DNA from: an uncultured Acidobacteriota bacterium
GTDB lineage: Bacteria; Acidobacteriota; JAAYUB01
NCBI GenBank assembly: GCA_964412195.1
Contig: CAYPNP010000011.1
Span: 63,881 to 127,880, forward strand
DNA: 64,000 nt
Direction of reading: 5' to 3'
Shown here: positions 669 to 52,960 of the stretch, piece after piece
How the letters are laid out: each line of letters opens with the position of its first letter
Position numbering within the stretch: position 1 is the stretch's first letter
The notes under the pieces: generated by a model
The model's database searches: none
What the model was told of the DNA's origin: nothing
What the model saw: only the letters and a program-made list of their open reading frames with translations
Position numbers and translations under genes: made by a program

Positions 669-1388
669 CTACTGCCGCCCCCGCGAGGCCAGGAACCGGT
701 CCACCTCCGGCGGCAGGGTGCTGCGGGCGAAGAACCGCAGCTGGGTGATCTTGTCCGGCGCCGAGGCGCCGTACTTGTAGAACACGAGCAGGAATTCGGT
801 GGCGGAGACGCGGCGGTAGGACTTCAGGCTGCCCCACTCGCGCACCCAGGCCCGGTCGGCGCACTTGGCCGAGCCGGTCTCGAAGACGATCTTGTCGGCA
901 CGCAGCCACAGCGTGCCCATGCAGTTGTTGGCGTTCAGGTCCAGCTCCACGTCCAGTTTGTAGGGCAGCTCCAGCTCGCTGCCGGCGGGGCCGCCGCCCT
1001 GCGGGGCGTCGACGCGGCCCATCCGCTGCAGGATGTACTGCAGGGCGGCCTGGTTGTCCGGGCTGTCATTCTTGAATTTCAGGACGTACTTCTGCCCGTG
1101 GCCGTGCTCCTTGTCGGCGAAGAAGATGTGCAGCTCGTAGGTGTTCTTGATCTCGACCTTCTCGAGGGCGGAGTACTCCCACACCCGGCTGTCGCCGACG
1201 ACGGTCCGGGACTCGAAGATGACCTTGTCGTCGCGGACGATCAGATTGCCCTGGCACTCGCCCACGCGGTGGTTGTGCTCCACGGGGATCGTGTACAGGG
1301 TCTCGGCCAGCAGCCAGCCGCCGGCCACCGCCAGGAGCGCCAGCGCGAAGAACAGGGTCCGGGCCGTCGTGTGTCTCATGGTTGCCAT
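669..1388 (-). CDS. Secreted hypothetical protein with two internal repeats (possibly PH-like)
   Basis: GGAGGG RBS before the ATG at 1388 and a signal peptide. Repeated CxGxLxxRxDK[VI][IV]FE[ST] motif. Confidence 0.75.
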   Translation of the reverse strand: MATMRHTTARTLFFALALLAVAGGWLLAETLYTIPVEHNHRVGECQGNLIVRDDKVIFESRTVVGDSRVWEYSALEKVEIKNTYELHIFFADKEHGHGQKYVLKFKNDSPDNQAALQYILQRMGRVDAPQGGGPAGSELELPYKLDVELDLNANNCMGTLWLRADKIVFETGSAKCADRAWVREWGSLKSYRRVSATEFLLVFYKYGASAPDKITQLRFFARSTLPPEVDRFLASRGRQ

Positions 1389-1454
1389 TCCCTCCGGGAG
1401 AATTTTCACCCTAGGATAGCCCAACCAGTCGGGACCTGCAAGGTCATTCCGAGC

Positions 1455-1583: not shown

Positions 1584-2369
1584 CTACCGGTTCAGGGTGA
1601 AGTTCACCGAGACGGTGCCGATGATGGAGATGGGACGGCCGTCCACGCTCGTGGGACTGTAGACCCACTGTTCCACCGCGGTCCTGGCCGCCGCGGCCAG
1701 GATCGGATTGCCGCTCACCACCCGGACGTCGGCCACCCGGCCGGATTCGTCCACGGCCACCTGGATGATGACGACACCCTGGATGCCCGCCCGGATGGCC
1801 ATCTCGGGGTAGACCGGTTCCACCCGCCGGACCAGTTTGGACAGAAGCACCGTCGCGCTCACCGGTTTCCGGTCCCTGGGAGGTGCGGGCCGGACGGGGG
1901 GCGGGGGTGCTTCTGGTACGATGTCATTGCCATGGATCCAGGCGGCCTGGTCGATGCCGGGGACCAGCCGTCCCGGCACGCCGTATCCCCCTGGAACACC
2001 CAGCCCGCTCTCTCCGACTGGAAAGTACTCCTGCGCGGATCGATCATCCGGCGGCGGGAGGTCGTCCGGGATCACGAGCGGAGGGTGGAAGCCGCCGAGG
2101 TCGACGGGCGGACGGGGCGGCCGGGGAGTCTGCGGCCCGCCGGCGGGACCGGTCGTCGGCGGCGCCGGTACCACGATCGGCGGAGCGTACCGATTCGTCA
2201 CCTCCGTCAGGAACCGGCCCACCTCCTGCGGGATGGCGGCAGGGAACATCAGCGGGATGGACACGATCACGGCCAGCGCGGTGGCGTGAAGCAGCGCGGC
2301 CATGGGCAGGGTGCGGGACACCCGGGTGCGGGCGCAAGCGGCGGACGAGACGATCAGCTGGTCAAACAT
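1584..2369 (-). CDS. tonB: Energy transducer TonB
   Basis: N-terminal TM helix with His (ALLHATALA), Pro-rich linker, and a C-terminal PVYPEMA..GIQGVVIIQVAVDESGRV TonB_C motif. Confidence 0.9.
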   Translation of the reverse strand: MFDQLIVSSAACARTRVSRTLPMAALLHATALAVIVSIPLMFPAAIPQEVGRFLTEVTNRYAPPIVVPAPPTTGPAGGPQTPRPPRPPVDLGGFHPPLVIPDDLPPPDDRSAQEYFPVGESGLGVPGGYGVPGRLVPGIDQAAWIHGNDIVPEAPPPPVRPAPPRDRKPVSATVLLSKLVRRVEPVYPEMAIRAGIQGVVIIQVAVDESGRVADVRVVSGNPILAAAARTAVEQWVYSPTSVDGRPISIIGTVSVNFTLNR

Positions 2370-2582
2370 GGCGGCCTCCTTCCCGCCAGGCGCCGCTTCC
2401 GCGGGCCGCCGGCGGCGTGGGATGTGCCCGTGCAGGCCTGACCGGGACTTCTCGCGCGCTTAAACTAATAGACACGACGGGGGCGGGTTGGTTCCATCAC
2501 TCGGCGGGCGCCGGGACAGGATCAGTGGACGGTCGCGGGATCTCGGCGGCTCAGCCGGACCGCGGGACTTCCGGCACAGCCT

Positions 2583-3902
2583 TCACTTGATCGGGACGCA
2601 GGTGCAGACCGGGACGCAGGAGCAGTACGAGTTCCCGCTGGGCCGGGGGACGGGGACCAGGATCGTTCCGGGGACGCAGTTGCAGGTGCACACGCAGCCG
2701 GCGGGGATCGGCGAGCCGCAGGGGAGGGTGTAGGTGATCGTCTGGCCGTACTGGTTGGTCCAGGTGTACTGCTGCGCCTCGCGGTTGTTGTCCAGCGTGG
2801 CTGGGTCAAACAGGTTGGTGAAGTATTCGCCGGTGCCGGCGTCCCACAGGCGGATGGTCTTGTCGTCGGCGCCGGAAGCCAGCACCCTGCCGTCCGGAGA
2901 GTACGCCAGGCAGTTGACAGCGCCTTCATGGCCGGACAGGGTCTTGACCGGCTGCCCGGTGTCGGTCGACCACAGCTTGACCAGGCGGTCCGCGCCGCCT
3001 GAGGCCACGCGCCGCCCGTCGGGGCTGCACAGGATCACGCCGACGCCGGTGCCGTGCGCCTTCCAGACCGGCCCGGGCGCGCCGTCGGGGAGGCCCCAGG
3101 TCCGGATCGTCTCGTCGGCACCGCCGGAGAACAGCCGCCGCCCGTCGGGGCTCCAGGCCACGGCATCCACCGCGGCGCCGTGACCGCGCAGGGTCTGCCG
3201 GCGGAGGCCCTGCGGGATGTCGTAGAGGCCGACGGTGCTGTCGGACGCCGCGGAGGCCAGCCATTGGCCGTCGGGGCTGAACGCCACGGCGCCGACCGGT
3301 CGCCGATGGCCGGTCAGGGTCTTGATGCGGCGGCCGGCCGCCAGGTCCCAGAGCTGGATGGCGCCGTCGTCGGTGCCGGAGGCCAGGTACTTCCCGTCGG
3401 GGCTGCAGTCGACGCAGAGTACGGTCTGGGCCCAGACGCGCAGGGTCTGGCCCAGGATCCCCTCGGGCAGCTGGCGGGACCGGATGGTCTTGTCGGCGTC
3501 ACCATAAACCGCCTCGCCACCCGGGCTGACCGTCACGCAGTGGACGGCGCTCTTGCCCGCCTGGACCTTGTGCAGCCGGCCGAGGGGCATCTCCCAGATC
3601 TTCACCGACATGTCGACGGAACCGGACACCAGGTAGGAACCGGTCCCGTTGAACGCCACGCCCTTCACCGGACCGGCGTGGGCCTGGATCGCCGCCGCCG
3701 GCTTGAGGGCCGGCGCGGCCGCCCGTACCGGCAGGCTCAAGCCGCCCAGGATCGCGGTGCCCGCCGCCGCGGCGACCAGGAAACTGCGCCGGTCCACGCT
3801 CCAGTCGAGCGGGACGTCCGACAGTTCGTACAGGCGGGGCTCGCCGGCGGACGCGTCGGCGTAGAAGTCCTGCAGCTGGAAGCGGGGCCGTCTCTCCGGC
3901 AT
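2583..3902 (-). CDS. Tat-signal WD40 beta-propeller protein (7 repeats) with Cys-rich C-terminal tail; putative radical-SAM substrate
   Basis: GGAGGG RBS, DRRSFL Tat motif, seven GH..SPDG..LASG..D..I.LWD repeats, tail LPCGSPIPAGCVCTCNCVPG..YCSCVPVCTCVPIK. Confidence 0.9.
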   Translation of the reverse strand: MPERRPRFQLQDFYADASAGEPRLYELSDVPLDWSVDRRSFLVAAAAGTAILGGLSLPVRAAAPALKPAAAIQAHAGPVKGVAFNGTGSYLVSGSVDMSVKIWEMPLGRLHKVQAGKSAVHCVTVSPGGEAVYGDADKTIRSRQLPEGILGQTLRVWAQTVLCVDCSPDGKYLASGTDDGAIQLWDLAAGRRIKTLTGHRRPVGAVAFSPDGQWLASAASDSTVGLYDIPQGLRRQTLRGHGAAVDAVAWSPDGRRLFSGGADETIRTWGLPDGAPGPVWKAHGTGVGVILCSPDGRRVASGGADRLVKLWSTDTGQPVKTLSGHEGAVNCLAYSPDGRVLASGADDKTIRLWDAGTGEYFTNLFDPATLDNNREAQQYTWTNQYGQTITYTLPCGSPIPAGCVCTCNCVPGTILVPVPRPSGNSYCSCVPVCTCVPIK

Positions 3903-3997
3903 GGTTCCCTCCCGAGGCAAGTGCTCACCCCGTTGGTAAAGGCTCTCTGATATGGTGACAGGCTATTGAACCACATCGGCGGTACGAAGGCAATGTC

Positions 3998-5497
3998 TCA
4001 CGTGAATTCAGGGCTGATTCCCGGCTCGGCCGGCCCGCCGGGGCGGCACCTGTCCTCCGTTGCCGTGGGCGCCCCGCCCCGAATCCAGGCCCTCCCTCCG
4101 TTTGCCTGGATCTCCTTGAGAACCAGGAATTTCGTCAGCTCCTGGTTCACCCGGCAGCGGAGCGGCAGTTCCCCGGCAGGGAGGCGGCGCTGTCGTTCGC
4201 CCTCCTTGACGGCGCAGTCCCCGGCGCAGTGCCACCGGCAGAAGCAGCCGTCGCAGGCGCGCGCCTGCAGCACCGAGCGCCGGCGGTGGCGGCGGGCGGC
4301 CGCCGGATCGAGGCGGAAATCCCCCGCCCCGTCCCACCGGCCGACCAGGAAGGCGCGGCTGAGGGGGTGCCGCCGCCCGTACACCTCGAAGCAGGCGCTG
4401 ACGTCGCCGGCGGGCGTCACCACCAGCGCCCGGCACGGCGCCAGGCAGAACCGCCGGGTCAGCAGCTCCGGCCGGGCGCCGGAGTAGAACAGCCGGATGC
4501 CGCGGGCGGCCGCGACGTCCCGCGCCGCGGCGAACTGGCGCAGGAACTCGTCCGGCTCGTCCAGCGCCGCGGGGGAGCGGCGGGCGCGGCCGGTGGCGAA
4601 GGCGGGCTCCGCCTGGATGGTGTGCGGCCGGAAGCGGGCGGCGATGTGGGCCACGCTTTCCGCGAGCGAGGCCACGCTGCCGCGCGTGACCGTCAGCCGG
4701 ACGCCGTAGCGGAATCCGGCCGCGTCCAGGGCTTCCAGCGTCCGGGCGGCGCGGCGGTAGGAGCCGCGGCCGCCGGCGCCCGGCCGCTGGGCGTCCTGCA
4801 CGGCCGGCGTCCCGTCGAAGGAGATGCTCAGCTCGGTGAAGTTCCGGAGGATGTAGTCCCGCACCCGGGCGGTCCAGCAGCCGTTGAAGGCGCCGGTCAC
4901 CTGGAGCGGGACGCCGAGGCGGTCCGCGCCGGCTCGGGCGCGGGCCACGGCGCGGGTGAGCACCGGCCAGTTCAGGCTGGGCTCGCCCCCGCCGTGGAAG
5001 GCCAGGGTCATCCCCGGCCGGCCGTGGCGGACCACGTCGGCCAGCACCCGGTCCACCGCCGCCCGGGCGAGGGGCCAGGGCATGTCCTCGGCCGGCAGCT
5101 CGCCCCCGTCGGCGTAGCAGTAGACGCAGCGGAGGTTGCAGCGGTTGGTGAGGAAGAGCACGGCGGTGTCGTAGCCGCCCGCGGCCGCGGCCGGGTCGTC
5201 CGGCGGGGGCGCCGCCTCCCGGAAGAGCCCCAGCCGCTCCAGGCCGGCCAGCAGGGAAGCCGGATCCTCTTCACGGGCCTCCCCTCCCGCGGTGGCCGCC
5301 CGTCCATTCATCGCCTGCTCCGGCGCCTCGGCCCGGCGGCGGACCTGCTCCACCAGCGCGCCGTTGGCGACGAAGGCGATGCCGTGGAGCGGCGCGTACA
5401 CGAGGTACCGGTCCGCGCCGGCCGGCACGGCGAAGATCTGCTCCGGCAGGCGGAAGCGACGGGACGGCGGGAATTCAGCGACGGGAAGGTCGGGCAT
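3998..5497 (-). CDS. Radical SAM/SPASM-domain protein, putative peptide/protein maturase
   Basis: CNLRCVYC (CX3CX2C), FHGGGEP, SPASM cysteines FCLAPC..GDVSACF and CDGCFCRWHCAGDC..RC, and an RRE-like N-terminal extension. Start is at 5497 or 5506. Confidence 0.92.
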   Translation of the reverse strand: MPDLPVAEFPPSRRFRLPEQIFAVPAGADRYLVYAPLHGIAFVANGALVEQVRRRAEAPEQAMNGRAATAGGEAREEDPASLLAGLERLGLFREAAPPPDDPAAAAGGYDTAVLFLTNRCNLRCVYCYADGGELPAEDMPWPLARAAVDRVLADVVRHGRPGMTLAFHGGGEPSLNWPVLTRAVARARAGADRLGVPLQVTGAFNGCWTARVRDYILRNFTELSISFDGTPAVQDAQRPGAGGRGSYRRAARTLEALDAAGFRYGVRLTVTRGSVASLAESVAHIAARFRPHTIQAEPAFATGRARRSPAALDEPDEFLRQFAAARDVAAARGIRLFYSGARPELLTRRFCLAPCRALVVTPAGDVSACFEVYGRRHPLSRAFLVGRWDGAGDFRLDPAAARRHRRRSVLQARACDGCFCRWHCAGDCAVKEGERQRRLPAGELPLRCRVNQELTKFLVLKEIQANGGRAWIRGGAPTATEDRCRPGGPAEPGISPEFT

Positions 5498-5641
5498 GGG
5501 CTCCATCCGGATTGTCGGTCGCCTGATTGTAGCCGATCACGCCGCGCTTTCCAAGTTCCGGTCCATTCGGCTATAATTCCGACGATCCGGCGGCCGCCCC
5601 GCCGCCGTGGCCCGGCGTCGGACACTCACGGGAGGTGGCCC

Positions 5642-6130
5642 ATGGCCCGATTCTTCGCCTTGCTTGCCTTTTGCGGACTGCTTGCGGTGGCCTGGATGCC
5701 GGCCCAGCAGAAGCCGGATTTCTCCGGCGATTGGGTGCTCAACAAGGCCCGCACCCGGCTGCAGTTCCCCGACATCACCGCCATCGACCGCGGCTCCATG
5801 GAGATCGAGCGCGAGGGGACCGCATTCAAATTCAAACGGGTGTTCGTCATCGGCCTGGAGAAGGACATCTTCAGCTACGAGCTGACTGCCGACGGCAAGG
5901 AGACGACCACCAAGGAGGGCAAGCGGAGGATCGTCTCCAAATCGTACTGGGACGGGGACGCGCTGGTCTACGACACCAAGATCGACGCGCCGGGGGGCGA
6001 CGCCACCAACGTGGTGCACTACCGGTTGATCGAGGGCGGCCAGGTGCTGGAGGCGGAGGAGCACTTCCGCGGCCCCAAGCACCAGCACGACAACGTCTGG
6101 ATCTTCGACCGCAAGCCCCCTACCCCGTAA
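5642..6130 (+). CDS. Secreted hypothetical protein, lipocalin-like beta-barrel
   Basis: GGAGG RBS, signal peptide, DFSGDWVL (GxW) motif, alternating beta-strand pattern. Confidence 0.75.
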   Translation: MARFFALLAFCGLLAVAWMPAQQKPDFSGDWVLNKARTRLQFPDITAIDRGSMEIEREGTAFKFKRVFVIGLEKDIFSYELTADGKETTTKEGKRRIVSKSYWDGDALVYDTKIDAPGGDATNVVHYRLIEGGQVLEAEEHFRGPKHQHDNVWIFDRKPPTP

Positions 6131-6139
6131 CGGGAAACC

Positions 6140-6260
6140 GGGAATTCACCACAGAGGCACGGAGGACACAGAGGGGAATTCAGGGTTCCGATCCGCAATC
6201 CGCAATCCGAAAACCGCAATCTGCCGATTCACCCATTCACCTATTCACCCATTCACCCAT
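6140..6260. repeat. Composite oligomer array (CACAGAG, ATCCGCA, ATTCACCC modules)
   Basis: Three unit families in series between convergent genes. The last module contains the stop codon of the methyltransferase. Confidence 0.8.
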
Positions 6261-6973
6261 GCCAGGCACGCCAGGTACCCCCACGCCGGCTCGTCTACCA
6301 CGACCTCGCAGGACCAGCCGGCCCGGGCGGCCCGCTCGGCGAGGGTTTCCGGGTCGACGTGGAGCCAGCCGCAGTACGGCCCGCTCTGGCCCGCAAACTC
6401 GAGCTGGATGCGGATCTCGCCGACGTAGCGGCCGGCCTTCCGGTTGGCCTCGTGGTAGGCCAGGTGGCGCGGATCGTCGGTGTGCCGCACGTCCGTCGAA
6501 TCCAGCAGCAGCCGCCCGCCCGGAGCCAGCAGCCGCCGGGCCCGGTCGAGGAAGCGGTCCAGCCCGGCCAGGGTACCGGCAATCCCGACGCCATGGCCCA
6601 GCATCAGCAGGGTGTCGAACGGCCTCTCCTGGAACTGGAAGATGTCCGCGCAGCGGGCATCGCGGACGCTCCGAGCGGTCATGACCGCCACGGCCTCCGG
6701 GCTGATCTCGAGGGCGGTCACGGACAATCCCCGCTCCTGCAGGGCCAGCGTGTGCAGCCCGCTGCCGGCGCCGATGTCCAGCACGCGCCCACGGCATCTC
6801 TCCAGCGCGGCGTTCTCGAGGGGCGTGAACTCCGCCGGCGCCCGGAAAAAGTGGCCCACCGGCAGCGCGTATTCGACGCCGTCATCCCGCCGGACCGTCA
6901 ACCGCGCTTCCCTGTTGCCCTCAAAGTATGCCTTCAGCGCCAGCCCCTGCGGCGACATCGCTTGCGGTTCCAT
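6245..6973 (-). CDS. Class I SAM-dependent methyltransferase
   Basis: Motif I VLDIGAGSG; LEISP; FDTLLMLG. Confidence 0.9.
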   Translation of the reverse strand: MEPQAMSPQGLALKAYFEGNREARLTVRRDDGVEYALPVGHFFRAPAEFTPLENAALERCRGRVLDIGAGSGLHTLALQERGLSVTALEISPEAVAVMTARSVRDARCADIFQFQERPFDTLLMLGHGVGIAGTLAGLDRFLDRARRLLAPGGRLLLDSTDVRHTDDPRHLAYHEANRKAGRYVGEIRIQLEFAGQSGPYCGWLHVDPETLAERAARAGWSCEVVVDEPAWGYLACLAWVNG

Positions 6974-6986
6974 GAGCGCCTCCTAT

Positions 6987-7403
6987 TTAACGACCGGTGG
7001 ATCGTTTCGCGATGACAAGGCGGATTCCCCTGTCTAGCCGGCCGCTTCGGATCTGTTGCAGGACGTTGCGCAGTGTGGTTCTTTGAGAATCTCGCACCTC
7101 ATCTCCAAAATACACAGCGGTCAGGCAGATGCCGCGGGGTGACTGCCGGAACAGGTAGTCCACCGCTTCGGCCAAGAGCGGGATATAGTCGCCTTCAAGC
7201 TCCCATTGAGTCGAGGAAGTGGTGGGATCTACGACAAACGAACAGGAGCACGCGACGGTTGGATCGGACAATTCCAGAAGTTTCGTATCCGGGGCAGTCC
7301 GGATCCACTTCATCCTCCCCCCGGTCTCCGGCACAACACCGCAATAATCATCAAGCGAAGCCGTTGGGATGTCATTCAGTGTTGCTTGGAGAAGAAAGCA
7401 CAT
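6987..7403 (-). CDS. Hypothetical protein, visibly lower GC than flanks
   Basis: ATG at 7403 with an AGGTGA RBS-like site. No recognisable motif. Confidence 0.45.
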   Translation of the reverse strand: MCFLLQATLNDIPTASLDDYCGVVPETGGRMKWIRTAPDTKLLELSDPTVACSCSFVVDPTTSSTQWELEGDYIPLLAEAVDYLFRQSPRGICLTAVYFGDEVRDSQRTTLRNVLQQIRSGRLDRGIRLVIAKRSTGR

Positions 7404-7517
7404 CGGCTCACCTGCATGCTGAATAGTTATCGGGACGAGACGAATTATTCTACCAAATTTTGGAACTAACCGAATCGGCTCCGTTTGATCAGGCAAACCT
7501 GTGAGGAGGATTGTCTG

Positions 7518-8030
7518 ATGAAATACGAGCGATTTGAGGACCTGCCGGCGTGGAAGGCGGCCATTCATCTGGCGATGGCGGTCTACGCCGTGACCCGGGA
7601 CCGGTTCTTCGTGCAGGCGGGCGACCTGCGCAGCCAGTTGCGGCGGGCGGCGCTGTCGGTGTCCAACAACATCGCGGAGGGGTTCGAGCGCGGAACCACC
7701 GCGGAACTCATTTCCTTCCTGTACATCGCGCGCGGATCGGCGGGGGAAGTCCGCTCCATGCTCTGCTTCATCGAGCAGAGCCCGGAATCGGGCCATCTCA
7801 AATCTCAAATTTCAAATTTGAAATTGTTGGCAGAGGATTGCTCCCGGCAACTCAGAGGGTGGACCAACCATCTGCAGAATTCATCCATCCAGGGGCAGCG
7901 GCACCTGACCGATGGCACGCGGAGGCGCGACGCGGCGCGGAAGGACGCGGACGATTTCCAGGCCAAGCTCGCCGAAACCCTGCACCGCGCCCTGCCGAAT
8001 ATTTATCCTGATCCACACTCGGAGGAGTGA
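7518..8030 (+). CDS. Four-helix-bundle protein (23S rRNA IVS / Avd-like family)
   Basis: FEDLPAWK..LRSQLRRAALSVSNNIAEGFERG..FLYIARGSAGEVRSML signature; GAGGAGG RBS. Confidence 0.92.
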   Translation: MKYERFEDLPAWKAAIHLAMAVYAVTRDRFFVQAGDLRSQLRRAALSVSNNIAEGFERGTTAELISFLYIARGSAGEVRSMLCFIEQSPESGHLKSQISNLKLLAEDCSRQLRGWTNHLQNSSIQGQRHLTDGTRRRDAARKDADDFQAKLAETLHRALPNIYPDPHSEE

Positions 8031-8077
8031 GCGCCTGGTGGCACCAAGAGCGATCTCACATTGACCGAGGCATCAAA

Positions 8078-8575
8078 TTACGACTTCCCCTCGCTTCTGA
8101 AGTCGAGAAAGTCGGTGGCCGGCGGCACGGCGCCGGCCTGGCGGATCAGGGCGGCAGCCTGGCCGCGGTGGTGGGTCGAGTGGTTGACCAGGTGCAGGAG
8201 CAGGTCGACCAGCGGATACTCGAGCTTCTTGCCGGCGATGTTGGTGTAGCGGAGCGGCCGCTCCAGATCGGCTGCCTTGAGCGAGGCCAGAAACTTCGAC
8301 TGCCCGGCCTCCGCCTCGTCCAGCTTCCGCCGGAGCTCCGCCGGGTCGGCCGCCTTGGCCCAGTCCGGCAGGGCCGACGGGCTCTCGCCGAGCCAGCGCC
8401 GCAGGTAGAGCCACTCGACGGCGACGATGTGGCCGAGCGTGTTCCGGACCGATCCGAAGCTGCCGCCCAGATCCGCCGCGTACTTGTCGGGATCCAGCTC
8501 CGCGGCGGCGCGCAGCAGGCGGGCGTTGGCCCAGCGGTCGTAGGCGAACAGGTTGTGAATGTCGGGAATCTGCAT
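8078..8575 (-). CDS. DinB/YfiT family protein
   Basis: YDRWANARL, TLGHIVAVEWLYL, HLVNHSTHHRGQ. Confidence 0.92.
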   Translation of the reverse strand: MQIPDIHNLFAYDRWANARLLRAAAELDPDKYAADLGGSFGSVRNTLGHIVAVEWLYLRRWLGESPSALPDWAKAADPAELRRKLDEAEAGQSKFLASLKAADLERPLRYTNIAGKKLEYPLVDLLLHLVNHSTHHRGQAAALIRQAGAVPPATDFLDFRSEGKS

Positions 8576-8697
8576 GGGATCCTCCCCCCGTGAGTATGCC
8601 TGGTAAGACGCGCTGGCACGGGCACTGGATGCGCCCAAACCTGCACCCTGTTTCAATCCTCGGATCAGCCGGCGACTTGCCGCCGGTGGGGCGGGCC

Positions 8698-9093
8698 TCA
8701 GCCCCCGGCCGCGGGCTTGCAGCTGTTCCAGATGTCGCGGTGGAGGCGCCAGCCGCCGGCGGTGTTCTTCCAGACGACGACGTACTTGCCGTTGTCAGCC
8801 TCGGCGCCGCCCTCGACGTAGAGGTGGTAACGGCCGACCTCCACGGCGGTTTCGCCGAACGCCTCGACTTCGACCGATTCGAGGCGGGCGTCGCGGATGC
8901 CCATCCCCAGCACCACTCCCCAAAACTCGCGGATCGCGTCGGCCCCGTCCACCGGCGGGAAATTGGGGGGCAGGAGCCGGCCGTCGGGGGTGTAGCCGGC
9001 CGCCAGGTCGCCGGCGCTGCCGCGCCGCACCGCCTCGCCGAAGCGGGCGTTGGCCGCCGCGATCGCTTCCCGGACATTCGTTTCAACACTCAT
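8698..9093 (-). CDS. DUF4440 / SnoaL-like (NTF2 fold) protein
   Basis: AIAAANARF..GREAI-like segment and the C-terminal GKYVVVWK..GGWRLHRDIWNS. Confidence 0.88.
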   Translation of the reverse strand: MSVETNVREAIAAANARFGEAVRRGSAGDLAAGYTPDGRLLPPNFPPVDGADAIREFWGVVLGMGIRDARLESVEVEAFGETAVEVGRYHLYVEGGAEADNGKYVVVWKNTAGGWRLHRDIWNSCKPAAGG

Positions 9094-9326
9094 GGAACGC
9101 CTCCTTCAGGATCGGGATACGGAGCCGGAACCGGGCCGGCCGGGGTCTGCGGGGATCTCGCCAATTCAATTTCGAAATAGAGAGCTGATTTTCCGTCATT
9201 GTAGCACGGCGGGCCAGTCCCCAGGCACATCGTCAAGCCGGGCACTCCCGACGCGGCCGCGCCGGCCATTGACCAGCCGCGGCCCACGGCGTACAATCCG
9301 GACAATCGCACTCCCCGGAGGCATCC

Positions 9327-28962: not shown

Positions 28963-30102
28963 ATGGCCGACTCCACGCCGTCCTTGTGGCAGGCGATGCA
29001 GGCCAAGGGGTACTCGCGCCGCGACTTCCTCCGCTTCTGCTCCTACGCGGCCGCCGTGGCGGGCATTCAGGCAGCAGGCCTGTCGAAGGTGGTCCACGCC
29101 CTCGAGACCAAGCCGCGCCCCCCCGTGGTCTGGCTCCATTTCCAGGAGTGCACCTGCTGCAGCGAGTCTTTCATCCGCTCCTCCCACCCCATCGTCGCCG
29201 ATGTCGTCCTCGACCTGATCTCCCTGGATTACTCCCAGACGCTCCAGGCCGCCGCCGGCGCGCAGGCCGAGCAGTGCCTGCAGGACACCATGAAGAAGTA
29301 CCCGGGCCAGTACATCCTGCTGGTGGAGGGCGCCGTGCCGCTGGCGGACGACGGCGTCTACTGCACCATCGCCGGGCGCTCCGCCCAGGCGATCCTGGAG
29401 GAGGCCGCCGCCGGCGCCGCCGCCGTGATCGCCTGGGGCAGCTGCGCCTCCAACGGCTGCATCCAGGCCGCCAGCCCCAACCCGACCGGGGCCACCCCCA
29501 TCCACAAGATCCTGGGCAAGCCCGTGATCAACGTGCCGGGCTGCCCGCCCATCGCCGACGTCATGACCGGCATCGTCGCCCACATCCTGGTCATGGGCCA
29601 TCCGCCCGAGCTGGACAGCCAGGGCCGCCCGAAGGAGTTCTACTCCCGGCGCGTCCACGACACCTGCTACCGCCGCCCCTACTATGACGCCGGCCTGTTC
29701 GTCGAGGCCTGGGACGACGAGAAGGCCCGCAAGGGATTCTGCCTCTACAAGATGGGCTGCCGCGGGCCGGTCACCTACAACGCCTGCTCGGTAACCCGCT
29801 GGAACGGCAACCTGAGCTACCCGATCCAGTCGGGCCACGGCTGCATCGGCTGCAGCGAGGCCAACTTCTGGGACAACGGGCCGTTCTACCGGCACCTGGC
29901 CGCCTTCCCCGGCTTCGGGATCGAGACCACGGCCGACACCATCGGCACCGTCGTCGGAGTGGGCGCCGTCGCGGGCGTGGCCGCCCATGCGATCAGTACC
30001 AACATCCGTAAGCGAAAATTGATCAAGGGCATGATGGAAGAAGCCCACGGCCCGGAGACTGCCGGGAAAGACAATCCCGCGGAAGGAGGTGAAGGCAGAT
30101 GA
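28963..30102 (+). CDS. hyaA: [NiFe]-hydrogenase small subunit, Tat signal, 6-Cys proximal cluster
   Basis: SRRDFLR, ECTCCSES, WGSCASNGC, GCPP, CLYKMGCRGP, GHGCIGC, C-terminal anchor helix. Confidence 0.96.
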   Translation: MADSTPSLWQAMQAKGYSRRDFLRFCSYAAAVAGIQAAGLSKVVHALETKPRPPVVWLHFQECTCCSESFIRSSHPIVADVVLDLISLDYSQTLQAAAGAQAEQCLQDTMKKYPGQYILLVEGAVPLADDGVYCTIAGRSAQAILEEAAAGAAAVIAWGSCASNGCIQAASPNPTGATPIHKILGKPVINVPGCPPIADVMTGIVAHILVMGHPPELDSQGRPKEFYSRRVHDTCYRRPYYDAGLFVEAWDDEKARKGFCLYKMGCRGPVTYNACSVTRWNGNLSYPIQSGHGCIGCSEANFWDNGPFYRHLAAFPGFGIETTADTIGTVVGVGAVAGVAAHAISTNIRKRKLIKGMMEEAHGPETAGKDNPAEGGEGR

Positions 30103-31814
30103 ACCGCATCGTTGTTGACCCCATCACCCGCATCGAGGGACACCTGCGCATCGAGGCCGTCGTCGAGAACGGCAAGATCACCGACGCCTACAGCTCGGGC
30201 ACCATGGTCCGGGGCTTCGAGAAGATCCTCAAGGGCCGCGACCCGCGGGACGCCTGGGCCTTCACCGAGCGCGCCTGCGGCGTCTGCACCACCGTGCACG
30301 CGCTGGCCAGCGTCCGCACCGTCGAGGACGCCCTGAAGGTCGCCGTGCCGAAGAACGCCGAGCTGATCCGCAACATCATGTTCTGCGCCCAGTACGTGCA
30401 GGACCACGTGATCCATTTCTACCACCTGCACGCCCTGGACTGGGTGGACGTGGTCAGCGCCCTGAAGGCCTCGCCGGAGGAGACCTCGAAGCTGGCCCAG
30501 ACGATCTCACCCTGGCCGAAGAGTTCGGTGGGATACTTCACCGCCATCCAAAACCGGATCAAGACTTTTGTCGAGAGCGGCCAGCTGGGCATCTTCGCCA
30601 ACGGCTACTGGGGCCACCCGGCCTACAAGCTGCCGCCGGAGGTGAACCTCCTCGGCGTGGCCCACTACCTCGAGGCGCTGGAGTGGCAGAAGGAGGTCAT
30701 CAAGATCCACACCGTCTTCGGCGGCAAGAACCCGCACCCGAACTACCTGGTCGGCGGCGCGCCCTGCTCCATCAACACCGACGAGGTCAACGCCATCAAC
30801 ACCGAGCGGCTGAACCTGGTGGGCAAGCTGATCAAGGACGCCAAGGTGTTCGTCGAGCAGGTGTACCTGCCCGACCTGCTGGCCGTGGCCGGCTTCTACA
30901 AGGACTGGGCCGCCGTGGGCGGCGGGCTGTCCAATTACCTGGCTTATGGCGACCTGCCCACCCGCGGCTACGGGCAGCCCGACTTCTTCAAGTTCCCGCG
31001 CGGGGCGATCCTCGGCCGCAACCTCAACGAGGTGCACGAGGTCAACGGCCGGGACGCGGAGGAGATCAAGGAGTACATCGCCCACTCATGGTACGCCTAC
31101 TCCAAGGGCGACGCCGCCGGCCTGCACCCGTGGGACGGCGAAACCGAATTCAATTTCACCGGGCCGAAGCCGCCCTTCGAGCAGCTGAACGTCGAGGGCA
31201 AGTACTCGTGGCTCAAAACCCCGCGCTGGAAGGACAACGCCATGGAGGTCGGCCCGCTGGCGCGGCTGCTGGTGGGCTACGCCAAGGGCAGCACCGAGAT
31301 CAAGGACGTCGTCGACGGAGCGCTGGGCAAGCTGGGCGTGCCGGTGGCGGCGCTCTTCTCCACCCTCGGCCGCACGGCGGCGCGCGGCCTGGAGACCCAG
31401 CTGACGGTGCACTGGCTGCAGGAGTTCTACGACGACCTGATCGCCAACATCAAGGCCGGCGACACCCGCACCTTCAATCCCGAGCGCTGGGACCCGGAAA
31501 CCTGGCCCGCCGCCTGCGAGGGCGTGGGCATGTCCGAGGCCCCGCGCGGCGCCCTGGCCCACTGGATCCGGATCCAGGACGGCAAGATCGACAACTACCA
31601 GCTCGTGGTGCCGAGCACCTGGAACGCCTCGCCGCGGGATGCCAAGGGCCAGCGCTCCTCGTACGAGGAGGCCCTGCTGGGCACGCCGGTGGCCAACCCG
31701 GAGCAGCCGCTGGAGATCCTGCGGACGATCCACTCCTTCGACCCGTGCATCGCCTGCGCCGTCCACCTCTACGACCCGGACGGGCGGCAGGTGCACCGGG
31801 TCCGCTTCTTCTAG
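30099..31814 (+). CDS. hyaB: [NiFe]-hydrogenase large subunit, group 1 (1d-like)
   Basis: DPITRIEGH, L1 ERACGVCTTVH, L2 SFDPCIACAVH plus a cleavable tail. Confidence 0.97.
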   Translation: MNRIVVDPITRIEGHLRIEAVVENGKITDAYSSGTMVRGFEKILKGRDPRDAWAFTERACGVCTTVHALASVRTVEDALKVAVPKNAELIRNIMFCAQYVQDHVIHFYHLHALDWVDVVSALKASPEETSKLAQTISPWPKSSVGYFTAIQNRIKTFVESGQLGIFANGYWGHPAYKLPPEVNLLGVAHYLEALEWQKEVIKIHTVFGGKNPHPNYLVGGAPCSINTDEVNAINTERLNLVGKLIKDAKVFVEQVYLPDLLAVAGFYKDWAAVGGGLSNYLAYGDLPTRGYGQPDFFKFPRGAILGRNLNEVHEVNGRDAEEIKEYIAHSWYAYSKGDAAGLHPWDGETEFNFTGPKPPFEQLNVEGKYSWLKTPRWKDNAMEVGPLARLLVGYAKGSTEIKDVVDGALGKLGVPVAALFSTLGRTAARGLETQLTVHWLQEFYDDLIANIKAGDTRTFNPERWDPETWPAACEGVGMSEAPRGALAHWIRIQDGKIDNYQLVVPSTWNASPRDAKGQRSSYEEALLGTPVANPEQPLEILRTIHSFDPCIACAVHLYDPDGRQVHRVRFF

Positions 31815-49847: not shown

Positions 49848-50948
49848 TTATTGTTTCTTTGGCTCCTGCTTGCCCGCCGGAGTCGGCTGGGCGGGGGGTT
49901 CCGCCGGTTTGTGCGCCGGGGCCGGGGCGGCGGGGACCACCGTGCGGCGCGGCAGCTGCAGGCCCTCGAAGGGGATGGTGAAGGGTCCCACCAGCTTCTT
50001 GTCCGGGTAGAACAGAATCGAGGTGGAGAGCGAGTCGCCGTACAACTGGATGCTCGCGGCCGCCGCAGGGTCCTGGACGTCCAGCACCGCTTGCGCCACG
50101 GACACGAGGCCGGTGGGCGTGCGCGAGTTGGTGTGCACGGCGGAGAACCGCACCAGCCCCTCGGCGTTGGCCTTCTCCAGGTTGGTGAAGATGGGCTTCT
50201 TGGCGAACTCGGCGGTCTGCCCGGGGTTCATGTCGACGAGCTTGACCCTGGTCGGGTCGTACTTGACACCCAGGGTATAGGCGCCCAGGACGGCCGGGAT
50301 TCTCTCCGTGTCCCGGATGACGAACGTAACGCCGGTCAGGTCCACGAAGATGTCGTACTTGTAGACCGTGCCCTCCTGCGGCTCGACTTTCTTCAGGACC
50401 AGCTTGGCCTTGCCCTCCAGGCGGGAGGGCAGCTGGTTCTCCTTCAGGTACTGCTGGAAGCTCGTGGGCTTCTTCTCGCCGCCGGCCTGCGGTGCGGTCG
50501 ATCCAGCCGGGGGCGATCCGGCCGGGGTTGTCCCAGTCGGAGGCGCTCCAGTGGGCGGATTGGCCGGAGGCGGCTGAGCGGGGCTTTGGCCGAAGGGTGG
50601 CGCGCCTGGCGGCGGGGCGGCCGGGACCGGCGCCGCGGGGGACGTCCCCGTCGCGGGAGGCGCGGCCGGGGCTGCCGGTGCGGCCTGGGTGGGGGCGGCT
50701 TTCTCTTCCTCGGCCGCCGGGGCGGCGGCGGGCTTGGCCTCTGCGGCCGCGGCTTTGTCCGCCGGCTTGGCAGGCTTGGACTTCTTCTTCTTGTCCTTCT
50801 TCGCCGGTTCCTGCTTCTCCTGGACGGGCTGTCCCTGCCCGACCGCAGGGGTGGAGGCCTTCGTCTCCTCAGCAAGGCAGGCCGTCCAGAACAGCCCCGC
50901 GCAGGCGGCTGACAGCAGGATCGCACGGATTCGATGCAAAGTGGTCAT
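49848..50948 (-). CDS. Exported Pro/Ala-rich protein with a cohesin-like C-terminal domain
   Basis: Signal peptide, about 110-aa low-complexity linker, LGAYTLGVKYDPTRVKLVD..GLVRF..GLVSVA; ATGA overlap with tkt. Confidence 0.7.
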   Translation of the reverse strand: MTTLHRIRAILLSAACAGLFWTACLAEETKASTPAVGQGQPVQEKQEPAKKDKKKKSKPAKPADKAAAAEAKPAAAPAAEEEKAAPTQAAPAAPAAPPATGTSPAAPVPAAPPPGAPPFGQSPAQPPPANPPTGAPPTGTTPAGSPPAGSTAPQAGGEKKPTSFQQYLKENQLPSRLEGKAKLVLKKVEPQEGTVYKYDIFVDLTGVTFVIRDTERIPAVLGAYTLGVKYDPTRVKLVDMNPGQTAEFAKKPIFTNLEKANAEGLVRFSAVHTNSRTPTGLVSVAQAVLDVQDPAAAASIQLYGDSLSTSILFYPDKKLVGPFTIPFEGLQLPRRTVVPAAPAPAHKPAEPPAQPTPAGKQEPKKQ

Positions 50949-52960
50949 GCGTTGTTCCTCCCGGAATGGGCCTCGGGGGACACCTCCGCCATCGGCAGGG
51001 GGTCCAGGGGCCGGGTGGATTCCACCAGGCGGTGGATGGCCGCCTTCAGGCCGGCTACGTCCAGGCCCTGCGAGCGGTACACCTCCTCGGTCGGGCCGGA
51101 GGTGGCGTAGTCCCGCGCCCCCAGCCGGGCGAACCGGACGGCGAAGCCCTCGTCCGCCAGCCGGCGGGCCAGGATCGCCCCGAGGCCGGTGCCCCGGTGG
51201 TGGTCCTCGTAGGTCACCAGCACGCCCGCCGCCCGGATGGCCGTCAGGGCCGCCGGATCCATCTCTTTCGGGCAGGCGAAGTGGACCACGCCCACCGACA
51301 GGCCCTGCGCGGCCAGCTCGTCCGCGGCCTGCACCGCCCGGCCGGCCAGCGTGCCCATGGTGGCGATCACGGCGTCCTGGCCGGTGCGCAGGATGTCGGC
51401 CCGGCCGTAAACGAATTCATAATTCTCGTCGAAGAAGGGGCTCCCGTCCGGGTGCCGGATCACCGGCAGCTTGGACCGGCCCATGCCGATGAAGCAGTTG
51501 CCGGCTTGCGCCGCCGCCCAGCGCACGGCCCGGTCGGTCTGGTTAGGGTCGGCCGGCAGGATGACCCGGAAATGGTGAAGGTTCTGGAGCAAGCCCAGGT
51601 AGTCGATGCACTGGTGGGTTTTTCCGTCCTCACCCACATCCAGCCCCAGGTGGGTGCAGACCACTTTCAGGTTGGCCTCGTTGATGTCGTTGATGCGCTG
51701 CTGGTTGTAGACCTCGTCGACGCCGAAGACGCCGAAGTCGGCCCAGAACACCTGCACCCCCTGCACGGAGAGGGCGCCGGCCGCCACGGCGGCGTGGTGC
51801 TCCATGATGCCGCACTGGAAGAAGCGGTCGGGGTGCGCCTTGGCGAAGCCGGAGGTCTTCACGCTGCCGGCGAGGTCGCAGTCGAACACCGCGATCGGGG
51901 TGGCCGCCGGGTCGCCGGCGTTGGCTGCGGCGACGTCCTCCAGCGCCTTGCCCCAGGCGCTGCGGTTGTCGGTGGGCTTGTCCGGCGGGTAGATCCGCGG
52001 CGAGCCGGGATTCAGCCGCACCTCCGGCCGGTCGACCTCGTAGCCCCTCAGGTGGGCGGTGCCCCGCCGGCGCAGTTCCTTGTACCGGTCCAGCTCCAGC
52101 GGCAGACCCAGCTCGGCCAGGGCCTTGCCCAGCAGCGCCTCGTCCAGCGCCTGGCCGTGCCATTTCTCGTCGTTTTCCATGAAGGCGACGCCCTTGCCCA
52201 TGACCGTGCGGGCCAGGATCGCCACGCAGCGCTCCCGGTCGAGGATTGCTTCCCGGAACGCGCCATAGATCTGGTCGAGGTCGTGGCCGTCGATCTCCAG
52301 CACCCGCCAACCGTCGGAAAGGAAGTTCTCCTTCAGGTTCTGAGGCATCACCACAGAGGTCTTGCCGCTGATCTGTAGGCCGTTCCAGTCGACGACGCAG
52401 GTGAGATGGGTCAATCCGTACTTGACGGCGAACCGGCGGGCCTCGCCGATCTGGCCCTTCTGCTGCTCTCCGTCGCCCATCAGGACGTAGGCGCGGCTGT
52501 CCAGCCCCAGGAGGCGGGACGCCAGGGCCATGCCGCAGCCGGCGGACAGCCCCTGCCCCAGGTTGCCCGAGCTCCACTCCACGCCGGGGACGTTGCGCTC
52601 CACGTGCCCCTCGAAGGGCCCGCCGGCCTGGCGGAAGTGGGCGACGGCGTCCTCCACCGGGAAGAAGCCGAGGTGGCCCAGCGCCGCGTAGACGCCCGGC
52701 GAGGTGTGGCCGTGGCTGACCACGATGCGGTCGCGGGCCGGATCGCGGGGATTCCGCGGATCGACGTTCGCCAGCGACCAGAGAGTGAGGTACAAATCGA
52801 TGGAGGACATGGAGCCGCCGGGGTGGCCGCAGCCGGCCAGGGTGGTCATATGGAGGATGTGGCCGCGGGCCTGCCGGGCCGTCTCCCGGATCCACTCCGC
52901 CGTCTCCGGGGCCAGCCGCTCCGCTCGAAATCCCCGGCATCCGTCCGCGATCTTCGTCAT
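50945..52960 (-). CDS. tkt: Transketolase
   Basis: GHPGGSMS, DRIVVSHGH, GNLGQGLS, GDGEQQKG..WNGLQI, GEDGKTHQ, YEDH. Confidence 0.95.
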   Translation of the reverse strand: MTKIADGCRGFRAERLAPETAEWIRETARQARGHILHMTTLAGCGHPGGSMSSIDLYLTLWSLANVDPRNPRDPARDRIVVSHGHTSPGVYAALGHLGFFPVEDAVAHFRQAGGPFEGHVERNVPGVEWSSGNLGQGLSAGCGMALASRLLGLDSRAYVLMGDGEQQKGQIGEARRFAVKYGLTHLTCVVDWNGLQISGKTSVVMPQNLKENFLSDGWRVLEIDGHDLDQIYGAFREAILDRERCVAILARTVMGKGVAFMENDEKWHGQALDEALLGKALAELGLPLELDRYKELRRRGTAHLRGYEVDRPEVRLNPGSPRIYPPDKPTDNRSAWGKALEDVAAANAGDPAATPIAVFDCDLAGSVKTSGFAKAHPDRFFQCGIMEHHAAVAAGALSVQGVQVFWADFGVFGVDEVYNQQRINDINEANLKVVCTHLGLDVGEDGKTHQCIDYLGLLQNLHHFRVILPADPNQTDRAVRWAAAQAGNCFIGMGRSKLPVIRHPDGSPFFDENYEFVYGRADILRTGQDAVIATMGTLAGRAVQAADELAAQGLSVGVVHFACPKEMDPAALTAIRAAGVLVTYEDHHRGTGLGAILARRLADEGFAVRFARLGARDYATSGPTEEVYRSQGLDVAGLKAAIHRLVESTRPLDPLPMAEVSPEAHSGRNNA

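Follow-up and report, generated by a model that had tools for sequence, protein, structure and literature searches.

A gene pair on an Acidobacteriota contig

The stretch of DNA analysed here (the window) comprises 64,000 nucleotides of a contig from an uncultured Acidobacteriota bacterium (CAYPNP010000011.1) and has a G+C content of about 67%. On its minus strand lie two co-oriented genes 95 bp apart, as an earlier note made from the letters alone had reported. The upstream gene encodes a radical S-adenosylmethionine (rSAM) enzyme with a SPASM domain, and the downstream gene encodes a protein composed of a conserved N-terminal leader, a twin-arginine translocation (Tat)-like signal, a WD40 beta-propeller and a Cys-rich tail (Table 1). 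The two genes are best explained as a cognate maturase-substrate pair belonging to a large unnamed family. The proposal that the tail-bearing protein is the substrate of the enzyme, already made in the earlier note, is very probably correct, being supported by the conservation of the two genes as neighbours, by a shared leader and by versions of the substrate that lack the propeller.

The longest open reading frame (ORF) of the substrate gene begins with a TTG at position 3920 and encodes 445 aa; an alternative ATG at position 3902, preceded 7 nt upstream by a GGGAGGG ribosome-binding site, yields 439 aa and the 95-bp spacer. A promoter search of positions 2000-6300 returned three promoter-like sites, against 0.2 expected from shuffled sequences, and none in the spacer. 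Because a promoter-like site lies upstream of the enzyme gene and none lies between the two genes, they likely form a two-gene operon. No terminator was found 3' of the substrate gene. Profile hidden Markov models (HMMs) of leader and tail detected no second substrate and no small precursor ORF anywhere in the window, in keeping with the initial impression that no precursor is adjacent.

Table 1. Positions of the gene pair, its parts and other genes discussed in the text, numbered from the first letter of the window
Feature	Positions	Strand	Remarks
Radical SAM/SPASM enzyme (putative maturase) gene	3998..5506	(-)	502 aa; family uncurated; 351 or more homologues at E<=1e-5; closest solved structure CteB
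RRE-like domain, N-terminal in the enzyme (predicted)	5207..5449	(-)	about aa 20-100; three strands then three helices (AlphaFold2 model)
CX3CX2C radical SAM cluster motif (C123, C127, C130)	5117..5140	(-)	invariant in 115 homologues; Pfam PF04055
SPASM domain, seven-Cys motif (C354/C358, C372, C418, C421, C427, C431, C451)	4154..4447	(-)	TIGR04085; Cys invariant or nearly so in 115 homologues
Spacer between the two genes	3903..3997	(-)	95 bp; holds the ribosome-binding site of the substrate gene
Proposed substrate gene	2583..3902	(-)	439 aa + stop; leader, Tat-like signal, WD40 propeller, Cys-rich tail
Conserved N-terminal leader (MPERRPRFQLQDFYADASAGEPRLYELSDVPLDWSVD)	3792..3902	(-)	precedes the twin arginines; leader HMM E 9.4e-17
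Twin-arginine motif RRSFL, hydrophobic helix and Ala-rich possible signal-peptidase I site (VRAAAP)	3723..3791	(-)	AlphaFold2 helix; RR conservation
Seven-bladed WD40 beta-propeller	2814..3668	(-)	28 strands; block-mean pLDDT 93-98 over residues 81-370; Pfam WD40
Cys-rich tail, module A TLPCGSPIPAGCVCTCNCVPG and module B YCSCVPVCTCVPIK	2586..2729	(-)	48 aa, 9 Cys; tail HMM E 1.8e-24; proposed core
Sigma-70-like promoter candidate	5526..5554	(-)	TTGGAA-17-TACAAT; the rSAM start codon follows after about 20 nt; consensus match only
251-aa protein	669-1424	(-)	follows the TonB-domain gene
TonB C-terminal-domain protein	1584-2369	(-)	261 aa; downstream of the substrate gene, 213-bp gap
SAM-dependent methyltransferase	6245-6973	(-)	upstream of the pair
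Protoporphyrinogen oxidase	16910-18346	(-)	297.8 bits
AhbD-like rSAM/SPASM protein	20620-21738	(-)	heme b synthase model 432.8 bits, cut-off 500
NiFe hydrogenase large subunit	30099-31814	(+)	
Transketolase	50945-52960	(-)	

The radical SAM/SPASM enzyme

The enzyme belongs to the radical SAM superfamily (Pfam Radical_SAM, PF04055: 38.6 bits, cut-off 29.5), and its C-terminal part is matched by the SPASM model TIGR04085 (28.6 bits, cut-off 27). Both the CX3CX2C motif and the full set of SPASM Cys that had been read from the sequence are borne out, the latter being legible as C358-x8-G-x4-C372 ... C418-x2-C421-x5-C427-x3-C431 ... C451. The 120 homologues listed share 38-100% identity with the window enzyme and carry only the names 'radical SAM protein' or 'uncharacterized protein'; the nearest named relative comes from a Gemmatimonadaceae metagenome-assembled genome (MAG; 51% identity). 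The best NCBIfam scores are those of the nif11-peptide maturase (88 bits), PapB (87 bits), QhpD (77 bits) and the SCIFF maturase (77 bits), for which the cut-offs are 340-519, and the enzyme falls below the cut-off of every curated named maturase family in NCBIfam.

The AlphaFold2 model of the whole enzyme (mean predicted local distance difference test score, pLDDT, 89; predicted template modelling score 0.89) consists of a b-b-b-a-a-a domain followed by the rSAM barrel and the SPASM domain. Foldseek aligned this model with CteB over 476 columns, nearly the full length (E 1.5e-20), and a search of the PDB with the enzyme family profile likewise placed CteB (5WGG) first (2e-40), followed by anSME, TigE, SkfB and ChlB. 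The N-terminal extension comprises residues 1-112. Its predicted elements are strands 25-30, 33-38 and 43-47 and helices 49-60, 63-67 and 82-91, with block-mean pLDDT values of 96-97 for residues 21-60, of 74 and 56 for residues 61-80 (which hold helix 63-67) and of 82-94 for residues 81-100, and homologues share the motif QIFxIPLxxxxYLVYAPLKGxAFxAN in this domain. The earlier note had described an extension of roughly 90 aa resembling the PqqD-type recognition element (RRE) of peptides that are made on ribosomes and modified after translation (RiPPs). The extension is present and its predicted b3a3 fold, together with the Foldseek match to the RRE-bearing CteB, agrees with that description, whereas detection by sequence HMMs failed; because no HMM recognises the domain as PqqD-like, the RRE assignment rests on predicted fold and domain order.

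Leader, propeller and Cys-rich tail of the proposed substrate

The leader of the window protein is a 37-aa N-terminal stretch, about 40 aa long in the family, that stands ahead of the twin arginines and has the consensus P-x-F-x-L-Q-R-V-Y-x-D-G-S-x-E-E-P-x-L-Y-x-L ... W-x-M-G-R-R-G-F-L. This conserved element had been overlooked at first, and it strengthens the case for the protein as a substrate. The Tat-like motif D-R-R-S-F-L-V is followed by a hydrophobic helix (helix 44-60 of the AlphaFold2 model, in the 445-aa numbering). Among 87 distinct homologous leaders the pair is RR in 82 (94%), RK in 3 and RH in 2, always followed by x-F/I-L and a hydrophobic stretch, and a lipobox-like Cys comes shortly after that stretch in 39 of the 89 homologues of full length. 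The Tat motif named in the earlier note is hence present as RRxFL plus a hydrophobic helix with well-kept arginines, but it does not reach the cut-off of the Pfam model for such signals.

The Pfam WD40 model (PF00400) matches the middle of the protein with an E value of 2.5e-68 and finds 5-6 repeats. In the AlphaFold2 model, 28 strands between residues 85 and 369 make up seven blades, the number counted from the sequence beforehand, and a short hairpin lies between propeller and tail.

The tail itself (TLPCGSPIPAGCVCTCNCVPGTILVPVPRPSGNSYCSCVPVCTCVPIK) has the reported 48 aa and 9 Cys and is predicted to be unstructured (pLDDT 43-47). Its module A has the consensus T-x-P-C-G-x-P-x-P-x-G-A-x-C-x-C-N-C-V-x-G and module B the consensus C-x-C-[N/D]-x-[V/I]-C-x-C-V-P. 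Positions P400, C401, P406, C411, C415 and C441 are invariant in 91-100 homologues, and eight nearly invariant Cys form two sets of four, C401/C411/C413/C415 and C433/C435/C439/C441. Across 261 tails, 512 of 1123 C-x-C motifs are followed by Asn or Asp, compared with a background of 6.5%. The sulfatase motif C-x-P-x-R is absent from the window tail. When 1.84 billion cluster representatives (clusters at 50% identity) were searched with a tail profile, 732 clusters matched at E<=1e-3 and 446 at E<=1e-10. Neither Pfam nor NCBIfam, searched at E<=10 or 0.1, had a meaningful match that would name a family for the tail or for the small Cys-rich peptides described below.

Several variants of the tail were observed. 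In one subfamily, repeated C-T-C-D-x-V hexads lead to the ending H-Y-W-Y-P-N instead of C-T-C-V-P-I-K (L025, L028, L029, L038, L044, L048, L070, L078, L082 and about 20 metagenome loci), and the tails of L001, L002, L032 and L099 end in K-Y-C-F-V-M-F-K. At L001 and L002 the tail lies on a separate overlapping ORF, and a programmed frameshift was considered and rejected: the near-identical L032 is one intact 560-aa ORF, the L001 assembly is error-rich with other genes split too, and L002 contains a run of N. Other homologues carry a Peptidase_S74 domain directly after the Cys tail (E 7e-13 and 5e-14; homologues P0143, P0144, P0148, P0153 and P0183, loci L086, L090, L105, L112 and L159). In these variants, which likewise adjoin an rSAM gene, the Ser of an S-D-R-x-x-K motif immediately follows ...CTCVPV. 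Peptidase_S74 is the self-cleaving intramolecular chaperone of phage tail spikes; self-cleavage would leave the same C-terminal end as that of the window protein, and the presence of this domain hints that the tail region may trimerise. Finally, a further subfamily (L033, positions 7371-9233; L064, positions 7371-9257; P0138, P0140, P0146, P0147 and others) has a conserved extension of about 130-160 aa past the tail, probably helical and without a Pfam match, with the motif C-Q-A-H-R-L-L-D-x-D-P-x-V-R-x-M-A-E-Q-L-L-L ... V-x-x-I-M-A-A-Q.

Conservation of the pairing

The pairing was followed from both sides. From the enzyme side, 80 loci from a scan with the enzyme alignment (one genome per species) were joined by L001, L002 and the window to give 83 loci. 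The tail HMM matched at 42 of these, the leader HMM at 50 and either of the two at 52, and all matches lie on the strand of the enzyme and directly abut it on one side or the other. From the tail side, metagenomes were scanned with nothing but the tail; of the 80 loci found, 21 show no less than 3.3 kb of sequence upstream and 0.6 kb downstream. The enzyme is present at all 21 (same strand at 19, divergent at 2), and the tail-found loci that lack it are those with the upstream side cut off. An rSAM/SPASM gene is therefore a conserved neighbour of tail-bearing proteins, the check proposed in the earlier note having come out in its favour. Across loci the enzyme lies upstream in 61 cases, downstream in 35 and on the opposite strand in 4. 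The pairing is thus beyond chance. With the enzyme gene on either side, it recurs in hundreds of other bacteria of many phyla, among them Nitrospirota, Desulfobacterota, Acidobacteriota, Gemmatimonadota, Planctomycetota, Chloroflexota, Bacteroidota, Spirochaetota and Bacillota, and in a few archaea.

Individual loci present the same picture. A first search with the tail alone found seven small or fragmentary proteins sharing TYTLPCGSPIPAGAVCTCNCVPG; two of them lie on long contigs, where the WD40-plus-tail gene is followed directly by an enzyme homologue, the reverse of the order in the window. Individual look-ups showed that the tail proteins P0121, P0122, P0313 and P0335 each adjoin an rSAM gene; for the Ereboglobus luteus protein P0286, nothing was found on record. 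When all ORFs around the pair were clustered all-against-all, the enzyme and the substrate were the only conserved genes, the remainder being antisense artefacts. This clustering yielded no third conserved gene and no peptidase or ABC exporter, which accords with the earlier remark that neither is adjacent in the window. Source annotations call the substrate proteins only 'hypothetical protein', 'WD40 repeat protein' and, once, 'NTPase, partial'.

Some loci show further arrangements. Two or three tandem substrate genes (leader, WD40 and tail) stand beside one enzyme gene at L006, L012, L014, L025, L029, L048 and L070. The enzyme also occurs in the archaeal-labelled MAGs L023 (Nanoarchaeia) and L037 (uncultured archaeon), the latter with a substrate made of leader, linker and module A that ends in PCGTPIPPGAICTCNCIRVRRRR. 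In the cultured Desulfosarcina cetonica JCM 12296 (L011, NZ_BBCC01000323.1), the enzyme gene at 706-2082 is followed by a WD40-plus-tail gene at about 2115-3631, and the leader lies on a separate short ORF, probably through a frameshift in the draft assembly.

Interchangeable passengers and small-peptide relatives

WD40 repeats are present in 90 of the 91 top tail proteins, yet what accompanies the enzyme is leader plus tail rather than the propeller, because versions without WD40 exist. For example, substrates of the Chloroflexota type have an NBR1-type Ig domain (N_BRCA1_IG) or an SH3_3 domain between signal and tail, and P0123, P0127, L017, L069, P0313 and P0335 have no passenger but a Pro/Thr linker only, P0313 and P0335 directly following an rSAM gene. 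Leader and tail are the constant parts of the substrate, and the middle is interchangeable.

More distant enzyme homologues (31-37% identity) are followed by Cys-rich peptides of 96-168 aa, e.g., ...CSCNKVCTCNPLCSC...CSCVPVH, with the general pattern CSCNKVCTC...CAPVH and either no passenger or merely a signal-like segment. The leader of these peptides (K-P-D-D-R ... E-P-K-I-Y-x-V-V) can be aligned to that of the WD40 type with an hhalign probability of 82.7% (E 9.6e-6). The distant systems often include a B12-type rSAM, a TPR membrane protein and a protein of about 150 aa bearing RRxFL; a second rSAM (12 loci) and the RRxFL-bearing protein (10 loci) are found in the distant subtypes only. We take the RRxFL-bearing protein to be PqqD-like from its sequence pattern; it matches no family model. 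Several distant loci resemble classical RiPP clusters (L035, L039, L042, L045, L047, L051, L059-L063, L067, L073, L075, L077, L079 and L081), with a precursor of 96-132 aa ending in C-R-C-A-P-V-H or C-S-C-V-P-V-H, and NCBIfam holds no model for their members (precursor, TPR protein, B12-binding rSAM or RRxFL protein). Comparison of these sequences places the window protein at one end of a series leading from leader plus core, through leader, signal and core, to leader, signal, passenger and core.

Proposed maturation and export

By its order of parts, the window protein appears to be built like a RiPP precursor that has been pulled apart, with a leader at the N terminus, a Tat signal and a folded passenger in between and a Cys-rich core at the C terminus. 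We consider it probable that the tail undergoes leader-guided Cys cross-linking in the cytoplasm, followed by export through Tat and removal of signal and leader by signal peptidase. The leader would be bound in the cytoplasm by the RRE-like domain of the enzyme, and is likely the recognition element. The radical SAM/SPASM core would then make intramolecular cross-links in the tail, for which the evidence leans slightly towards thioether chemistry. Thioethers from Cys to neighbouring residues, e.g., the conserved Asn/Asp of C-x-C-[N/D], would be the likeliest products because three relatives of the enzyme form thioethers, the target is Cys-rich and predicted to be unstructured, and C-x-C-[N/D] is enriched. 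A closed WD40 propeller brings its two ends together; because the propeller closes on itself, the leader-bound enzyme would lie close to the tail despite about 330 intervening residues.

The RR-x-F-L motif points to Tat, a carrier of folded proteins, which fits folding of the propeller and modification of the tail before export, and it is reasonably likely that the folded, modified protein is exported by Tat in this order. After export the tail might stay attached to the propeller and be displayed on it, as the earlier note supposed. Signal peptidase I would cut off signal and leader together, with signal peptidase II taking its place in the 39 homologues that have a lipobox-like Cys. Leader removal and export by signal peptidase and Tat would also account for the lack of a dedicated protease or transporter gene. 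An enzyme bound beside the RR pair could, in addition, hold the protein back from export until it is fully modified, in the manner of Tat proofreading chaperones.

As a tentative generalisation, such proteins may constitute a class of 'protein-embedded RiPPs', in which the leader lies in the Tat n-region and the core is the tail of a passenger, with the RRE as an export checkpoint that masks the signal before cross-linking is finished, signal peptidase as leader peptidase, an interchangeable passenger and a cross-linked module in the envelope. In the strict sense, a RiPP is a ribosomal precursor of leader and core that leader-guided enzymes modify and proteolysis then releases. Leader-like and core-like segments are conserved here, but the product may remain a protein of about 370 aa and would in that case fall outside the definition. 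In the cell envelope, a cross-linked C-x-C-[N/D] tail might serve, as a conserved functional module, for metal binding or redox chemistry or as an anchor that proteases cannot cut.

Points of doubt and alternative explanations

Several observations weigh against leader-guided thioether formation followed by Tat export. On the side of export, the Pfam TAT_signal model (PF10518) gives the window protein 16.9 bits, below its cut-off of 22.7, and a conserved n-region of 40 aa is unusual for a Tat signal. On the side of recognition, no PqqD or RRE model of Pfam or NCBIfam matches residues 1-113 of the enzyme, and a profile of the N-domain (24 sequences) had no match to PDB sequences at E<=10. As for the tail, module B of the window protein lacks the N/D that most homologues have, the tail sequence varies very little between phyla, in contrast to typical RiPP cores, and its 4+4 conserved Cys might instead bind metal or form disulfides. 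Finally, about 30 of the 83 enzyme-found loci have neither tail nor leader. These are mostly distant enzymes beside small peptides, or cut contigs (those of L013 and L027 end inside the substrate gene), but the clearest exception to the pairing is L005, a Desulfovibrionaceae MAG whose enzyme is 48% identical to that of the window and where no leader or tail protein was detectable on either strand within 6 kb flanks.

The first alternative concerns the chemistry. The enzyme could mature the tail by a reaction other than thioether formation, namely formylglycine formation (anSME-like), a C-C or ether cross-link, or use of the two four-Cys sets to assemble a redox or metal cofactor, and the product would then be a cofactor-bearing periplasmic protein, the usual cargo of Tat. 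Such chemistry is suggested by the presence of anSME among the structural and sequence matches, by the division of the eight conserved Cys into two groups of four, by a tail that is conserved like cofactor-type precursors and not hypervariable, by the aromatic HYWYPN ending of one tail subfamily and by the place of QhpD, an enzyme that takes part in making a cofactor-bearing subunit, among the top NCBIfam scores. However, three of the four top-scoring characterised relatives (PapB, QhpD and the SCIFF maturase) form Cys thioethers, as does CteB, the closest structure; the sulfatase motif is missing from the tail, and the tail has no fold in the AlphaFold2 model, though AlphaFold2 cannot model metal sites. 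We regard non-thioether chemistry as unlikely, if worth keeping in mind.

The second alternative concerns the export signal. The RRxFL segment might be an uncleaved membrane anchor or a Sec signal and the stretch before it a permanent cytoplasmic docking site, in which case the enzyme would act on a nascent or membrane-tethered protein, or propeller and tail would stay in the cytoplasm. The low Pfam score, the length and conservation of the stretch before the arginines, so unlike ordinary n-regions, and the fusion, in distant systems, of RRxFL and a hydrophobic segment to the protein of about 150 aa taken as PqqD-like (for which no family model matches) would suit this explanation. On the other hand, RR in 94% of leaders with F-L two positions on is the signature of Tat and would be superfluous in a plain anchor, the lipobox-like Cys of many homologues implies cleavage and a location outside, positive charges stand on the N side of the helix, and a propeller folded in the cytoplasm could not use Sec. 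An anchor or Sec signal is, on this evidence, doubtful.

It is highly improbable that the WD40 protein only partners, as a conserved receptor, scaffold or immunity protein, an enzyme that modifies an unrecognised small peptide or metabolite: substrate modification is so far a matter of inference and some close enzyme homologues (e.g., L005) have no detectable tail or leader protein nearby, but the window contains no small Cys-rich ORF and no second leader or tail match, enzyme and tail protein are the only conserved neighbours, leader and tail are kept while the propeller is swapped or lost, distant enzymes pair with small peptides bearing related leaders and Cys motifs, and passenger-free versions in particular make a mere partner unlikely. 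Membership in a defence system was also considered and rejected, PADLOC having given only generic matches to viperin (the rSAM core) and HEAT-ARM (the WD40 repeats).

Comparison with known systems

With cross-linking of the tail before export as the preferred explanation, the nearest likeness in domain order is to CteB and its SCIFF substrates. CteB (5WGG), a thioether synthase of the sactipeptide type, has the same succession of N-terminal RRE-type domain (predicted in the window enzyme), rSAM core and SPASM domain with two auxiliary clusters, and the SCIFF system also has a Cys-rich, unusually conserved substrate and no dedicated protease or exporter adjacent. The window enzyme is not a member of the SCIFF maturases, because its TIGR03974 score (77.1 bits) is far below the cut-off of 425, and no SCIFF-like ORF was found in the window. 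SCIFF precursors are cytoplasmic peptides of about 45 aa, whereas here a Tat signal and a propeller of about 285 aa separate leader from core, and the SCIFF Cys pattern is unrelated to the PCGxPxPxGAxCxCNC ... CxCxxxCxC of the window family.

Maturases of the PapB type (NF047865), which act on ranthipeptides, are the second-best NCBIfam match (87.1 bits), short of the cut-off of 340. They link Cys to side-chain carbons of Asp/Asn-type residues a few positions away, a linkage that fits the enriched C-x-C-[N/D] unit. In contrast to the window protein, the precursors of ranthipeptides are short, a peptidase or exporter is usually encoded close by, and we know of no such precursor with a Tat signal or a folded passenger.

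QhpD (TIGR03906) is an rSAM/SPASM enzyme that installs Cys-to-Asp/Glu thioethers in a protein subunit in the cytoplasm, before its transfer to the periplasm; the window enzyme scores 77.4 bits against a cut-off of 453. QhpD/QhpC may be regarded as the nearest precedent for modify-then-export within a protein. QhpC, a small subunit and not a Tat propeller, has a leader-processing protease and an ABC exporter of its own, and no dehydrogenase or qhp genes lie beside the window pair, whose neighbours are the TonB-like gene and the methyltransferase. The anaerobic sulfatase-maturating enzyme anSME is likewise a SPASM enzyme acting on a full-size protein bound for export, and it matches the window enzyme both in structure (E ~1e-11) and in sequence (2.4e-17). 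However, it has no RRE domain and recognises a local C/S-x-P-x-R that the window tail lacks, and the TIGR03942 score is 37.6 bits against a cut-off of 349.

Tat proofreading chaperones of the TorD, DmsD, NapD and HyaE type bind a long conserved Tat signal and retain the protein until its maturation ends. The analogy with them is functional only, with no relation in sequence or fold, and in the window system the binding part would belong to the enzyme that does the modifying. By analogy, the system may work like CteB/SCIFF or PapB, and in its logic like QhpD/QhpC and anSME/sulfatase; by curated models it is a member of none of these. The sources give it no name, and no description of the enzyme family, the tail or the architecture was found in the full-text literature, searches for the motifs themselves included, in line with the earlier remark that no characterised system of this architecture was known. 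One paper (PMC7159879) mentions rSAM, SPASM and WD40 together, but for different systems.

Other genes in the window

The genes flanking the pair lie on the same strand. Downstream of the substrate gene, the TonB C-terminal-domain gene is followed by that of the 251-aa protein, which starts with a signal-like segment and matches no family; at other loci, neither gene is conserved as a neighbour. The methyltransferase upstream is not conserved beside the pair elsewhere either, and its best NCBIfam match, to the daptide RiPP methyltransferase, is weak (47 bits, cut-off 175). Farther away, a second rSAM/SPASM protein of the window is AhbD-like, and the protoporphyrinogen oxidase gene lies about 2.3 kb from it; both are unrelated to the maturase pair. 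The NiFe hydrogenase large subunit and the transketolase are encoded farther still along the window. NiFe hydrogenases of this kind are usually Tat-exported with their small subunit, and because the large-subunit gene is present, the host probably has a Tat system. Neither a tRNA scan nor an Rfam scan found RNA genes in the window.

Significance

Radical SAM/SPASM maturases are known for short peptides, which are later cut out and exported by dedicated machinery. Here, an enzyme of the peptide-crosslinking type is tied, in many phyla, to full-size, export-tagged propeller proteins, which would be an undescribed use of peptide natural-product chemistry on a whole protein. If the proposed maturation is correct, leader and core would be separable by a whole domain, and the general Tat pathway and signal peptidase could replace the protease and transporter of a RiPP system. 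Peptide cross-linking chemistry would then serve to finish envelope proteins, a function would be found for a large number of bacterial proteins now called 'WD40 repeat' or 'hypothetical', and chemists would have a new conserved Cys motif. Since Desulfosarcina cetonica JCM 12296 is a cultured carrier, the question is accessible to direct experiment.

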